Of a stretch of 64,000 nucleotides of DNA, positions 30,107 through 63,349 are shown piece by piece. The stretch's first letter is position 1. Every line of letters begins with the position of its first letter. The stretch is taken from positions 949 through 64,948 of the forward strand of contig PDQZ01000009.1 in the NCBI GenBank assembly GCA_002747955.1, written 5' to 3'. The notes below the pieces were generated by a model, which was not told where the DNA came from, did not search any database, and saw nothing but the letters and a program-made list of their open reading frames with translations. This DNA is from Candidatus Campbellbacteria bacterium. Its GTDB lineage: Bacteria > Patescibacteriota > Minisyncoccia > Phycocordibacterales > GCA-2747955. A program made the translations under genes and the position numbers.

Positions 30107-30167
30107 TTTAGTTTAAAACACCATTTAACAAAGTTAAATGGTTTTTTTTTTAAATTCAAAAAATTTA

Positions 30168-30214
30168 AGGCAAGGCCTTGTTAAGGCAAGGTCTTAACAA
30201 GGCCTTGCCTTGAA
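30168..30214. repeat. nested palindrome built from caagg/ccttg units (GGCAAGGCC family)
   Basis: aaggcaaggccttgttaag-gcaaggt-cttaacaaggccttgcctt (19-bp arms). Confidence 0.7.
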
Positions 30215-32302: not shown

Positions 32303-32326
32303 GAAAACGAAAACCAAGCCCGAAAT

Positions 32327-32404
32327 TTTGAAAAAGTTTTTGGAAAAAGTTGAAAGGCTTGTGCCTTTCAACTTTTTCCAAAAACTTTTTCAAAATTTCG
32401 GGTT
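32327..32404. terminator. long nested-palindrome terminator (gcccgaaattttg..tttttggaaaaa.. family)
   Basis: agcccgaaattttgaaaaagtttttggaaaaagttgaaaggcttgtgcctttcaactttttccaaaaactttttcaaaatttcgggt; related element at 40264-40350. Confidence 0.7.
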
Positions 32405-36750: not shown

Positions 36751-36798
36751 CAAGGCCTTGCCTTAACAAGGCCTTGCCTTGTTAAGGCAAGGCCTTAA
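36751..36798. repeat. nested palindrome of the GGCAAGGCC family
   Basis: caaggccttgccttaacaaggccttgccttgttaaggcaaggcctta (18-bp arms, loop ccttg). Confidence 0.7.
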
Positions 36799-44244: not shown

Positions 44245-44559
44245 AATTATTTTTTCTTTTTTTCTTGATAAAAAAAGAAACAAACCAGAGCACGCTTTCA
44301 AATAAAAACCAAAATCAGCGTGCTCGGAACTGCTTTAAATCAAGACCTTGAAATTTTTTACCTAAAATTTAAAGTAAAAATCTAAAATTTTGCAACTCGC
44401 TTCGCTCAAACAGACAAAATTTCTTAACGATTTTTACTTTAAATTTCTTTACGGTAAAAAATTAACGGTCGTTTCCACACAAAACATAATTTTGCGTAAG
44501 CAAAATTATGTTTTTTTGTGGTTTTTGGTTATCCACATTTGGTTTAAAAATATCTTGTA

Positions 44560-44707
44560 TTTTAGAATAGAAAAGATATAATAAGTATACTAACTCGATG
44601 AAGTGCTTGCACTGATTTGAGTTAGTAATGGAAAAACCAAGCTTTGCTTGGTTTTTCCATTTTAAATTTAAAAATATAATCCCCCGCCGACGAAGTCGGC
44701 GGGGGAA
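44560..44707 (+). ncRNA. candidate small structured RNA in the ftsH-GH20 intergenic region (tataat followed by three consecutive hairpins)
   Basis: gatataat; tactaactc..gagttagta; atggaaaaaccaagc-ttt-gcttggtttttccat; cccccgccgacgaagtcggcggggg. Confidence 0.25.
44681..44705. repeat. GC-rich hairpin CGCCGACGAAGTCGGCG family, copy 1
   Basis: cccccgccgacgaagtcggcggggg; related copies at 61296 and 62064. Confidence 0.75.
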
Positions 44708-44757
44708 TTTAAATATTTTATTAATCATTTTAAAACATTAAAATTTATGTTATATTT

Positions 44758-54975: not shown

Positions 54976-54992
54976 TTTAAATAAGAAACATT

Positions 54993-55030
54993 GAGATAGG
55001 CCTTGCCTTGAGATAGGCAAGGCCTATCTC
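54993..55030. repeat. GGCAAGGCC-family palindrome
   Basis: gagataggccttgcc-ttgagata-ggcaaggcctatctc. Confidence 0.7.
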
Positions 55031-55046
55031 AGATCTGTCTCAAATG

Positions 55047-59080: not shown

Positions 59081-59167
59081 AAATTTTAAATTATAATATA
59101 CAAAAAACTTTGATAAAAACAAAAACCGCTTCGCGGTTTTTGTTTTTTTATTTTTTATTCTTAACCA

Positions 59168-59196
59168 GCGTTAACAGGCAAGGCCTGTTAACGCTT
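59168..59196. repeat. GGCAAGGCC-family palindrome
   Basis: agcgttaacaggc-aa-ggcctgttaacgct just after terminator aaaaaccgcttcgcggttttt. Confidence 0.7.
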
Positions 59197-61240: not shown

Positions 61241-61295
61241 AAAAGTTGAGGAGAAAATACAAAGTGTAATTTTAAGATAATTAAAGATGTAAAAG

Positions 61296-61321
61296 CCCCT
61301 CGCCGACTTCGTCGGCGAGGG
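61296..61321. repeat. GC-rich hairpin CGCCGACTTCGTCGGCG (copy 2, loop in inverted orientation); terminator-like
   Basis: aaaagcccctcgccgacttcgtcggcgagggtttttc. Confidence 0.75.
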
Positions 61322-61369
61322 TTTTTCTATGTTGCAGTATTATGCAATATATGATAAAATTAAAAAAAC

Positions 61370-61705
61370 ATGGAAAGGCAAATAATAAAATACAAAAAAT
61401 ACTTTGATAAGTTTTATGAAAAGTTGGAACACGATGAGAAAATTGAAATCAGGGAAGGTTTATATCTTTTAGCTTACGGAAAAGAACTTGAAAAGAAAAA
61501 TCTTATCAAAAGAATGAAAAACGGAGATGGGATTTATGAATTAAGGTTAAAAACAGAAAAAAGTATTTTTAGAGTTTTTTATTTCTATGACGGCCAAAAA
61601 ATTGTTGTTTTATTTCAAGGAATGAAAAAGAAAGATAAAAAAAGACAACAAAAAGAATTACAAAAAGCAATTAAGTTAAAAAAAGAATATTTAAGTGATA
61701 AATAA
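61370..61705 (+). CDS. RelE/ParE-superfamily toxin of the HigB / phage Gp49-like type
   Basis: ..DGIYELRLKTEKSIFRVFYFYDGQKIVVLFQGMKKKDKKRQQKELQKAIKLKKEY matches the Gp49-like addiction-module killer pattern. Confidence 0.65.
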   Translation: MERQIIKYKKYFDKFYEKLEHDEKIEIREGLYLLAYGKELEKKNLIKRMKNGDGIYELRLKTEKSIFRVFYFYDGQKIVVLFQGMKKKDKKRQQKELQKAIKLKKEYLSDK

Positions 61706-61709
61706 AATT

Positions 61710-62033
61710 ATGAATAAAAAAAAAGAAAAAGATTTAAACCAATATCCAGTTGGGAAAAATTGTTACGATTTAACACCAATTTTAGATAAAGAGTTTGGTA
61801 AACCTGGGACAAAAAGAGCAGAAAAGAGTTTGGAGAGAATTTTTAAAGAATACAGAGCAAGAGATTTGAAAGAAAAAAGACAAGAAGCTAAAAAAACTCA
61901 ACAAGAAGTTGCAGATATTTTAGGAAAAGATGTAACATATATCTCAAAAATTGAAAGCGGAAAAATGTCACCTTCAGTTGATGTATTTTATAAATATGTT
62001 CAGGCAATTGGAAAAAGAGTAGAAATAGTTTAG
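61710..62033 (+). CDS. XRE-family HTH antitoxin (HigA-like)
   Basis: ..LKEKRQEAKKTQQEVADILGKDVTYISKIESGKMSPSVDVFYKYVQAIG.. canonical XRE HTH; overlaps or abuts the toxin gene (alternative GTG start 61695). Confidence 0.65.
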   Translation: MNKKKEKDLNQYPVGKNCYDLTPILDKEFGKPGTKRAEKSLERIFKEYRARDLKEKRQEAKKTQQEVADILGKDVTYISKIESGKMSPSVDVFYKYVQAIGKRVEIV

Positions 62034-62063
62034 AGTTTTGCTTTTTTGAAACAAAACAAAAAA

Positions 62064-62089
62064 CCCTCGCCGACGAAGTCGGCGAGGGG
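62064..62089. repeat. GC-rich hairpin CGCCGACGAAGTCGGCG (copy 3); bidirectional terminator-like
   Basis: aaaaaaccctcgccgacgaagtcggcgaggggtttttc. Confidence 0.75.
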
Positions 62090-62296
62090 TTTTTCTAAAA
62101 TAACGAGCATAAAAAAGGATAAAACCTTGCTTAACGGTCCAGATTTTTACTTTTTTTTAATTTTTACTTTTTTTGTATTTTTTATACACAGCCAGAAAAA
62201 AAGCCTTATTTTTAAAGGCTTTTTTTACCTGTGTTTTACTTGTGTATATTTAAAAAATGTGTTATTATTATTTTATTACTTTTTAAAGAAAAAAAT

Positions 62297-63349
62297 ATGA
62301 AAATTGAAAATGTATCAAAGATAACTGAAAAAATTCTAGAAAATCTTCCAGAAAGATCAAAGGAGGTTTTGGAAAAAAGATTTGGACTTATCGAAGGTAA
62401 ACCAAGACAAACTCTTGACTCTATTGGTCAGAGTTATGGAATTACTAGAGAAAGAATCAGGCAAATTGAAAATTCAGCTAAAAAACTAATTTTAGAAACT
62501 GAAAAACTAACTTCTCATACTCAACAGGCGGTTGATGAATTGAAAAAAACTATTGACAGTTATGGTGGTATCATTGGAGAAAAAGAGCTTTTGGAAAAGT
62601 TTACAACAAATCAAGATGTTCAAGATCATATTCACTTTATTTTAAACTTATCAGAACCATTTTTTGAAGTTAAAAAACAAGAATATAAAGACAAAGTTTG
62701 GTATACACAAAAAGAGTCTTTTGAAGCTTTTGAAAAATCACTAAAAAAACTTTATCAAGATTTATCAACAGACGAAGTTTTGACTGAAAAAGAAATTTTA
62801 GATAGATTTTCTGAAAAACTAAGTCACTATACAGACAACAAAAAGATTTTGAAAATTGATACAGTTAAAAGACTTATTGGTTTGTCTAAAAAAATTGGTT
62901 CAAATGAACTTGGTCAATGGGGTGATACAAAATCAAGAAATATTTCAACAAAAGGTGTGAAAGACTGTGCTTATTTGATTCTAAATGAAGAAGGACACCC
63001 AATGCACTTTACAGAAATTACAAATGAAATTGCTGAAAGATTTCACAGAAATGTAAATACAGCTACAGTTCACAACGAACTTATCAAAGATAAAAGATTT
63101 ATTCTAATTGGGCGAGGAAAATACGGTCTAACAGAATGGAATAAATATAGTGGGGGAACAGTTGCTGAAGTTATTGCTGATATTTTGAAAAAATCTAAAA
63201 AAGCTTTGACAAAAGAAGAAATTGTTAAAAAAGTTTTAGAGAAAAAAGAAGTTAGAAAACAAACTATTCTAATCAATCTTTCAAACAAAAAATTCAAAAA
63301 AACAAAAGACGGAAGATACACTTTAAACAAAATCACAACAAAGAAATAA
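62297..63349 (+). CDS. protein with N-terminal sigma-70 region-4-like HTH, remainder unknown
   Basis: ..[49 protein letters not shown].. resembles sigma70 region 4; start at MKIENV (62297). Confidence 0.55.

Follow-up and report, generated by a model that had tools for sequence, protein, structure and literature searches.

The locus examined here is a chromosomal HigBA type II toxin–antitoxin (TA) operon that probably reached its present position as an old insertion; its flanking GC-rich hairpins are probably intrinsic terminators of a lineage-wide family. It lies in a 64-kb window, i.e., the whole stretch of DNA analyzed, from the Paceibacteria-class ‘Candidatus Campbellbacteria’, a small, AT-rich CPR bacterium with a genome of ~29% GC. 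A Pfam scan of 66 ORFs in this window found the TA pair to be the sole classic accessory module, as the initial annotation had proposed, the other ORFs being housekeeping or family-less; no transposase, integrase, recombinase or RAYT gene was detected among them. The surroundings of the pair in this ultra-small CPR genome are almost purely housekeeping genes, and the pair represents one catalogued case of addiction/defence genes persisting in reduced genomes. It is already annotated by NCBI, with the toxin named RelE, and is a divergent and unsurprising member of the HigBA type. Of greater interest is a side result, namely that a single specific GC-rich palindrome serves the Paceibacteria again and again as a terminator, at many unrelated sites. 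The features are listed in Table 1.

Table 1. Coordinates of the TA operon, its flanking hairpins and related features in the window
Feature	Position	Strand	Remark
Third copy of the hairpin family, TCCCCCGCCGAC-GAA-GTCGGCGGGGGA	44680–44706		12-bp stem, −26.6 kcal/mol
Left 36-nt arm: A-tract, GC hairpin 1, TTTTT	61291–61326	+	putative gatC-gatA terminator
Predicted TA promoter and operator	61332–61360	+	read from the sequence; function predicted
HigB-type toxin, Gp49/PF05973, RelE/ParE superfamily	61370–61705	+	111 aa
HigA-type antitoxin, C-terminal XRE helix-turn-helix with N-terminal extension	61710–62033	+	107 aa
Right 36-nt arm: A-tract, GC hairpin 2, G + TTTTT	62059–62094	+	putative TA terminator
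AT-rich terminator-like hairpin	62196–62226	+	−19.3 kcal/mol, z = −5.6

The toxin scores 50.3 bits on the Pfam family PF05973 (Gp49; cut-off 23.9) over profile positions 4–90 of 90, and the antitoxin matches HTH_3 with 54.6 bits, likewise over the cut-off. Together with the HigB profile and fold matches given below, these scores confirm the earlier assignment of the pair as a Gp49 toxin and an XRE-HTH antitoxin. The TIGR02683/HI1419-type ‘addiction module killer’ with its downstream HTH antidote has the same architecture; however, the end-to-end match of the toxin to NCBIfam TIGR02683 reaches 33.5 bits, under the curated cut-off of 62.85, and the antitoxin gave no match to TIGR02684, the partner model, so that the module, as judged from its sequence, is a divergent branch. 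An exhaustive search found the closest toxin relatives to be 40–47% identical, with none above 47%, and a word-indexed search returned the toxin itself alone.

The toxin family profile A1 retrieved HigB of S. pneumoniae from the PDB (6af3_A, E = 9e-7), as well as M. tuberculosis HigB1. An AlphaFold (AF2) model of the toxin (pLDDT 86.4, pTM 0.79) was compared with the PDB using Foldseek, and the top matches were HigB 6af4_A, 7nbu_Y and 7awk and HigB2 5ja8_E; YoeB and RelE came next. The TM scores were 0.57–0.73 and the E-values modest (about 1e-3); the modelled toxin has a RelE-like fold. Residues E57, R59, R68 and K87 align with E66, R68, R73 and K92 of S. pneumoniae HigB, which are the catalytic residues of that enzyme, and its catalytically important Phe, F90, corresponds to Met85 here (PMC7984235). 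The invariant K87 also aligns with K95 of M. tuberculosis HigB1, the residue mutated in the inactive K95A structures, suggesting ribosome-dependent mRNA cleavage. By analogy, the toxin is probably a ribosome-dependent mRNA endonuclease of the RelE fold.

Among known systems, S. pneumoniae HigBA (6AF3/6AF4; PMC7984235) is the best profile match and the best fold match (TM 0.68), and it shares the toxin-first order, the RelE fold with a C-terminal helix, the XRE-HTH antitoxin, the four catalytic residues and palindromes in the promoter region. It is unlike the Campbellbacteria pair in sequence (identity of about 18–20%) and in the F90 position, and the latter pair is further set apart by a Lys-rich toxin (23% K), a CPR host and an apparently leaderless promoter. 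HigB1 of M. tuberculosis (Rv1955; 7AWK, and 7NBU for the ribosome-bound form) and HigB2 of V. cholerae (5JA8) have the same fold, with a TM score of 0.73 to 7awk. However, M. tuberculosis HigB1 belongs to a TAC system of three genes that includes a SecB-like chaperone; no chaperone gene is present here, and sequence similarity is low. The antitoxin has weak PDB matches to S. pneumoniae HigA (6af3_B, the cognate chain of the toxin match) and to M. tuberculosis HigA2 (7ewc).

The toxin gene comes first, and the antitoxin follows 4 nt downstream with ATG 61710, the start that NCBI annotates for an identical 107-aa protein. The initial annotation described the genes as overlapping, in contradiction to its own coordinates; they overlap solely if the GTG at 61695 is the antitoxin start. 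An exact-protein look-up of the toxin and of both antitoxin start variants in public assemblies found none on record. Upstream of the toxin, a predicted weak −35 element, TTGCAG (61332–61337), overlaps the inverted repeat TTGCA-N6-TGCAA (61332–61347), and an extended −10 element, TGATAAAAT, is found at 61352–61360. The toxin ATG lies only 9 nt further, suggesting that the TA mRNA is leaderless or nearly so, and the extended −10 promoter would thus drive such a transcript with the toxin first. We infer from the homology of the pair that the first gene product is toxic and that HigA would neutralise it by direct binding, while repressing the operon at the inverted repeat that overlaps the −35 region.

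Hairpin 1, CCCTCGCCGAC-TTC-GTCGGCGAGGG (61297–61321), and hairpin 2, CCCTCGCCGAC-GAA-GTCGGCGAGGG (62064–62088), each consist of a perfect 11-bp stem with a 3-nt loop (TTC and GAA, respectively) closed by a C–G pair, which corrects the loops cttcg and gaag assigned earlier. Predicted RNA folding energies of the two hairpins were −25.2 and −24.6 kcal/mol, with z-scores of −6.1 and −7.3, and the window contains the hairpin arm 6 times, where shuffled sequence would give 0.02 occurrences. Hairpin 1 is located 56 nt after the gatA stop, with 48 nt between its end and the toxin ATG, and hairpin 2 lies 30 nt past the antitoxin stop; the pair is indeed bracketed within 75 bp, as had been claimed. The claim of opposite orientation also holds, since aligning the 36-nt arms as an inverted repeat gives 35/36 complementary positions, versus 30/36 identities as a direct repeat, showing that the loop is flipped and that the extra C/G lies on the opposite side. 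The arms enclose 732 bp, the whole unit at 61291–62094 measures 804 bp, and no comparably close pair of hairpins with the same sequence was found elsewhere in the window.

Both hairpins were called by a terminator scan (A-tract, 11-bp GC stem, T5 run), and hairpin 2 additionally has a T-run on the minus strand and would therefore be bidirectional. A stable GC stem-loop followed by a U-tract, 3′ of a stop codon, is present in each case, which supports their assignment as putative intrinsic terminators. Rfam gave no gathering-score match at any hairpin or intergenic region, and the sub-threshold matches were hairpin artefacts. In vivo, hairpin 1 would end the gatCA transcript and block read-through into the toxin gene, and hairpin 2 would end the TA transcript and shield the downstream gene. 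Each of the two local copies has its closest relative in the other, and their 35/36 similarity would most likely stem from an inverted duplication at the locus, from gene conversion or from the arrival of one copy with the insertion. In their A-tract, GC stem, short loop, T-tract and position 30–56 nt after a stop codon, the hairpins resemble bidirectional intrinsic terminators, the sequences of which, however, are normally not conserved between unrelated genes or genera, whereas this core is conserved.

The third copy, which the initial annotation placed at 44681–44705, is present with slightly different bounds (Table 1) and deviates from the flanking hairpins by a paired T→C/A→G change. Within the ftsH–GH20 intergenic region, it is preceded by two other terminator-like hairpins; lacking a T-tract on the plus strand, it does not qualify as a canonical terminator. 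Dozens of palindromes with perfect stems, loops of CGAAG or CTTCG and A/T tracts follow unrelated genes in the window, where GCGAAGC occurs 10 times versus 1 expected. A perfect palindrome with a C-GAA-G or C-TTC-G loop and A/T tracts is the usual terminator design of this genome.

The hairpin core, CC[C/T]CGCCGAC-N3-GTCGGCG[G/A]GG, also turned up in other Paceibacteria when GTDB and metagenomes were scanned, at 7–43 bp past genes that include secF, rplL, dnaE and L25; among the matches listed for a looser pattern in the GTDB scan, most are chance matches in high-GC sequence, and that scan is used qualitatively. In metagenome contigs below 42% GC, all 16 matches carried the family stem, with 0 for three control stems of equal composition, whereas in contigs above 55% GC the family stem (19) and the control stems (22) occurred at similar numbers. 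Some other members, including those in L065, L026 and L042, have no U-tract and, like the copy at 44680, do not qualify as canonical terminators. The exact 25-mer hairpin had no match in the JGI metagenomes, indicating that the organism is absent from that collection. Elsewhere the core occurs singly and in the terminator position after housekeeping genes, and no pairs around cargo were seen. The initial annotation had reasoned that a generic terminator shared by many unrelated genes would speak against its own reading of the hairpins, and at the level of the lineage this is what the core proves to be. These observations support the view that the hairpins belong to a shared terminator family rather than marking a mobile cassette, and that they share their sequence because both belong to a GC-rich palindrome family found after unrelated housekeeping genes.

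Termination alone is insufficient to explain the choice of one specific GC core. Low-GC contigs lack the equally stable control stems, which implies either copying or a sequence-specific function of the core. The core recurs at no fewer than 12 non-homologous sites across the lineage, with a resemblance to REP (repetitive extragenic palindrome) elements. The REP/BIME elements known from enterobacteria and pseudomonads are likewise short, GC-rich and palindromic; they are extragenic, recur at many non-homologous sites, often where genes end, and can serve as terminators or mRNA stabilisers. The Campbellbacteria hairpins are like them in being short GC-rich extragenic palindromes repeated at non-homologous sites, both within and across genomes. 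They are unlike REP/BIME elements in their perfect stems, their A/T-tract flanks and their low copy number (3 in 64 kb), and neither a RAYT gene in the window nor a GTAG/CTAC motif beside the hairpins was seen; a literature search turned up no relevant work on REP-type elements in Patescibacteria. That the core is a mobile REP-like palindrome seeding terminators, or the binding site of a lineage-specific factor, is an idea to which we assign a low probability. If the core were mobile, two inverted copies could capture and move DNA, and the TA operon would be the first hairpin-bounded composite cassette. If the terminators were copied or the core were recognised by a factor, this would bear on the insulation of transcription units and the spread of non-coding elements in streamlined genomes. 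In Neisseria, inverted pairs of DNA-uptake sequences (DUS) form terminators. A DUS reading was rejected here, since the hairpin arm never occurs alone, i.e., outside the three hairpins in the window, or inside genes.

In L209, the homologous TA module closest to this one, the genes are arranged in the same order, with 47% toxin and 64% antitoxin identity. Its TGATAAAAT box is conserved, and an inverted repeat is present at the matching position. Its 3′ terminator is AT-rich and different, and no GC hairpin is present there or within 40 nt upstream of the promoter. In the closest GatA relative (67% identity), gatC-gatA is followed after 118 bp by a sigma-r4/HARE-HTH gene, with neither a TA pair nor a GC hairpin, and in a second relative (L125) the surroundings differ, gatA being followed by a tRNA gene. 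Of the empty-site alleles that the initial annotation had suggested looking for, none was found at strain level, the nearest GatA being only 67% identical, a distance at which loss and gain of the TA pair are not separable with certainty. The AT-rich hairpin downstream lies 107 nt past hairpin 2, with no intervening ORF or promoter, and may represent the ancestral gatA terminator, stranded by the insertion. Based on this arrangement, the TA module appears to have inserted long ago between gatA and the sigma-r4/HARE-HTH gene. In the look-up of public assemblies, only the flanking genes were recovered, on Logan contigs that break at both hairpins; these breaks result from the 31-mer that the hairpins share in a k = 31 graph, and they provide no evidence for or against an empty site or an inversion.

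The initial annotation offered two readings of the hairpins, shared strong terminators, which the above results support, and a mobile mini-cassette, which is left unsupported by the L209 module with no such GC hairpin on its 3′ side or within 40 nt upstream of its promoter, the lack of a recombinase gene in the window and the lack of a second toxin copy. In its explicit form, the latter would treat the 804-bp unit as a non-autonomous MITE- or REPIN-like element with 36-bp terminal inverted repeats (TIRs), mobilised in trans by a transposase or RAYT, with the TA operon as cargo. The nearly perfect inverted arms do resemble TIRs and surround exactly one accessory operon, the nearest GatA relative is without the TA pair, an orphan terminator lies downstream, and the presence of the core, but not of the controls, at many non-homologous sites fits a copy-and-paste spread of the hairpin. 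However, the unit has no second copy in the sequences searched, no target-site duplication is recognisable, and no transposase, integrase or RAYT gene is found in the 64 kb, leaving the inverted repeats as the only hallmark of a MITE or IS. In addition, the hairpins elsewhere are solitary and in the terminator position rather than flanking cargo, and the composition of the TA pair is host-like, although a compositional test for recent transfer is uninformative in such a case. Such an element is therefore considered improbable.

A further reading, that the repeats are recombination sites of an inverton that flips the TA operon, draws on an enclosed length typical of invertons and on the Logan breaks at both repeats. 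The breaks are uninformative for the reason given above, no invertase or tyrosine recombinase is present nearby, and the hairpin is solitary at many other sites. Moreover, the operon has its own promoter and both arms would terminate bidirectionally, so that a flip would change nothing, and this reading is very unlikely. The palindromes on both sides of the operon could instead be operators or looping sites of HigA rather than terminators, as HigA proteins bind palindromes (PMC7984235). This is still harder to credit, as the core is found after other genes, among them secF, rplL and dnaE, in genomes and loci that have no such TA pair, one copy lies at 44680, far from the operon, and the inverted repeat overlapping the −35 element is better placed and has a positional counterpart in L209, where the GC hairpin is missing. 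The last alternative, an integron gene cassette bounded by attC sites, has a negligible probability. TA cassettes are common in chromosomal integrons, and imperfect palindromes flank such cassettes. The hairpins here, however, are short and perfect, have no R″/R′ core sites (GTTRRRY) or extrahelical bases and are inverted rather than direct, and there is neither an IntI gene nor a cassette array. The perfect 11-bp palindromes, their inversion and the missing integrase effectively refute an attC reading at the sequence level.

No relatives of the antitoxin were found in viral contigs, for which the toxin alignment was too divergent to allow a locus search, and the hairpin was found in 5 high-GC viral contigs only. 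Besides the antitoxin of L209, a homologue with 58% identity was recovered, which comes from Campbellbacteria (P0273).

The toxin–antitoxin (TA) pair is an ordinary HigBA-type module, as the initial annotation had recognised, and existing annotation has it as RelE plus a regulator. The toxin scores 50.3 bits against its Pfam family (cut-off 23.9), while its match to the narrower TIGR02683 model falls below threshold, and an exhaustive search returned 466 relatives at E <= 1e-3, the best with 47% identity. A family profile made from 38 members (A1) matched HigB toxins with solved structures, those of S. pneumoniae (6af3_A, E = 9e-7) and M. tuberculosis (HigB1), and the top PDB matches of an AlphaFold model of the toxin (pLDDT 86) are HigB structures, followed by YoeB and RelE. 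The residues in the S. pneumoniae HigB active site, E66, R68, R73 and K92 (PMC7984235), correspond to E57, R59, R68 and K87 of the toxin, whereas F90 is replaced by Met. K87 is the invariant Lys of the family and aligns with the residue that is altered in the inactive K95A structures of HigB1. Weak PDB matches of the antitoxin include S. pneumoniae HigA, which is the chain paired with the best toxin match, and M. tuberculosis HigA2. The two genes, previously described as overlapping, are separated by a 4-nt gap with the antitoxin ATG at 61710, which is also the NCBI start.

The nearest homologous module lies on a 1-kb Logan contig, L209, in the same gene order (toxin 47%, antitoxin 64% identity). 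Both loci possess an extended −10 box, TGATAAAAT (within window 61352-61372 and L209 61-80), as well as an inverted repeat located at −35, which in the window is TTGCA-N6-TGCAA (61332-61347); these are likely the promoter and a candidate HigA operator. The toxin ATG lies 9 nt past the −10 box in the window, and 9-17 nt across the two loci, with no Shine-Dalgarno sequence, suggesting a leaderless or near-leaderless TA mRNA.

The hairpins on either side of the TA are exact and have loops of 3 nt, rather than the cttcg and gaag first assigned. Their 36-nt arms including the A and T tracts (61291-61326 and 62059-62094) are complementary at 35/36 positions as an inverted repeat vs. identical at 30/36 as a direct repeat, confirming that the reported opposite orientation is real. 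Hairpin 1 folds with −25.2 kcal/mol (z −6.1 vs. shuffled sequence) and hairpin 2 with −24.6 kcal/mol (z −7.3). Hairpin 1 lies 56 nt after the gatA stop and hairpin 2 30 nt after the antitoxin stop, each followed by T5, so that both have the position and build of predicted intrinsic terminators. The hairpin arm occurs six times in the window vs. 0.02 expected. Copy 3, found as reported near 44.7 kb, carries a paired T->C / A->G stem change relative to the other copies and lacks a + strand T-tract. It is one of four hairpins in the 513-bp ftsH-GH20 intergenic region (44245-44757), which has a promoter-like stretch ahead of a terminator (44627-44661). No credible ORF and no above-threshold Rfam match were found in this region, which may encode a small RNA.

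Coordinates of the TA genes, the hairpins and related palindromes
Feature	Coordinates	Strand	Description
HigB-type toxin	61370-61705	+	111 aa, Pfam Gp49/PF05973
HigA-type antitoxin	61710-62033	+	107 aa, C-terminal XRE helix-turn-helix, HTH_3 54.6 bits
Hairpin 1	61297-61321	+	CCCTCGCCGAC-TTC-GTCGGCGAGGG
Hairpin 2	62064-62088	+	stem as hairpin 1, loop GAA
Copy 3	44680-44706		12-bp stem, loop GAA
AT-rich terminator-like hairpin	62196-62226		107 nt 3′ of hairpin 2, ahead of HARE-HTH promoter region
GCGAAGC/GCTTCGC examples	4054, 6929, 8956, 21502, 23028, 37541, 46127, 59128		
AGGCAAGGCCT family	20583, 28005, 30167-30211, 36752-36796, 54992-55031, 59167-59195		
Other GC-palindrome families	L026 4293-4323, 6994-7030; L186 3973-4000, 9966-10002; L148 1079-1164		on other Paceibacteria contigs

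A census of perfect hairpins showed that the usual terminator of the window is a perfect palindrome with a C-GAA-G or C-TTC-G triloop and A/T-tract flanks. The GCGAAGC/GCTTCGC mini-hairpin motif occurs 10 times vs. 1 expected and forms the apex of many terminators, suggesting that these triloops are the standard terminator loop of the genome. The TA hairpins share this design and are its most GC-rich examples in the window, where 3/4 strongly GC-rich hairpins carry their stem. Other repeated palindromes also form families in the window; a second family, with the core AGGCAAGGCCT, has 11 matches vs. 0.29 expected, including two 45-nt perfect palindromes, and every member lies directly 3′ of a housekeeping gene (e.g., EF-P, S7, Dus, KhpA); thus, hairpins of one family bracket housekeeping blocks too. 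An 84-nt perfect palindrome (32319-32402; 40-bp stem, −61 kcal/mol) was also observed 3′ of a RecO-like gene. Long perfect palindromes are normally unstable in bacterial chromosomes, and 84 nt is unusually long.

A GTDB scan with CCYCGCCGAC-N3-GTCGGCGRGG gave, among the matches listed, mostly high-GC chance matches, plus about nine low-GC loci, of which the GTDB records list five as Paceibacteria or Paceibacterota. Chance matches were told from the true family by a JGI metagenome scan with two stem positions per arm left open and same-composition stems as internal controls. On contigs below 42% GC, the target stem accounted for 16/16 matches and the three complementary control stems for none, vs. 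19 target and 22 control matches above 55% GC. Several low-GC JGI matches come from orthologous positions, yet with the GTDB matches and the window included they still stand for at least 12 non-homologous family sites. The hairpin lies 7-43 bp 3′ of the stops of secF, rplL, dnaE (convergent pair), L25, a DksA-like gene, a 606-aa secreted protein (before tsaE) and a 228-aa membrane protein. In most of these cases the loop is UUU when read in the direction of the gene before it, and no TA or mobile-element genes were seen at the gene-end sites examined. Around a constant GC core, the palindrome's outermost 5 bp vary by site (AAATG, AAGAG, AAAGC and others). At the orthologous site after rplL, L162 (846-882) has the family hairpin and L186 (11366-11402) an unrelated GC hairpin, CCGCAGGC-GAA-GCCTGCGG; the putative terminator has been replaced there, with the flanks including the downstream promoter conserved.

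Because its sites follow unrelated genes, the family hairpin is, as judged from sequence and position, a lineage-typical terminator element that is not specific to the TA cassette, and it is somewhat REP-element-like. Members without a U-tract are copy 3 and those on L065, L026 and L042. In the Paceibacteria MAG contig L065 (3050-3360), the hairpin sits inside a unit of ~80 bp that recurs at a spacing of 240 bp upstream of rpiB, with two further GC palindromes, ATTCCCGCGAAGGCGGGAAT and CCCCTGCCTTCGCAGGGG, in between; lacking U-tracts, these copies are not terminators. Further Paceibacteria contigs have small sets of recurring GC-rich perfect palindromes of their own, e.g., CCCCGCCCC-TTC-GGGGCGGGG; the repetition of GC hairpins in AT-rich intergenic DNA thus seems to be typical of the lineage in general. 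The point worth pursuing is the reuse of one specific GC-rich core at many unrelated Paceibacteria sites.

The initial annotation had offered two readings of the flanking hairpins, marks of a mobile cassette or shared terminators. The second is retained, since the core follows unrelated genes across Paceibacteria, and its generic use at the lineage level argues against the first. A transposable unit of TA plus hairpins is improbable: neither a second copy nor a target-site duplication was found, no recombinase is present among the 66 ORFs scanned, and the hairpin is solitary at other sites. Logan contigs do end exactly at hairpins 1 and 2, for which the 31-mer shared by the arms is alone enough, as it breaks a k = 31 assembly graph. 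In L209, the downstream neighbour is different, as is the terminator, which is AT-rich, and no GC hairpin lies within 40 nt upstream of the promoter, suggesting that the module changes contexts without these hairpins. Under the terminator reading, two copies of a lineage-wide hairpin would insulate the HigBA module.

As for its history, the closest GatA relative, at locus L123, is just 67% identical, leaving no strain-level relatives for comparison. There, 118 bp separate gatC-gatA from the sigma-region-4/HARE-HTH gene that comes next, and neither a TA nor a GC hairpin is present. In the window, nothing between hairpin 2 and the AT-rich hairpin needs termination, and the latter is read as a stranded ancestral gatA terminator. 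The host-like base composition of the TA suggests an old insertion or a similar donor. The identical inverted copies could have arisen by a local inverted duplication or template switch that supplied a post-insertion terminator, by gene conversion between neighbouring family members, or through one or both of them being co-inserted.

The window (~29.5% GC) encodes almost wholly housekeeping genes on the + strand, including ribosomal proteins, SecY, SecA, EF-Tu, EF-P, SmpB, FtsH and GatCA. Its sequence is also found in the Logan assembly of SRR6011893, and NCBI lists identical GatA, toxin and antitoxin proteins for 'Candidatus Campbellbacteria bacterium', encoded by a contig of 101,496 bp. In the gene 3′ of the TA (62297-63349), a sigma-70 region 4 domain is joined to a HARE-HTH domain like that of RNA polymerase delta; the matching region in L123 is called as three short ORFs.
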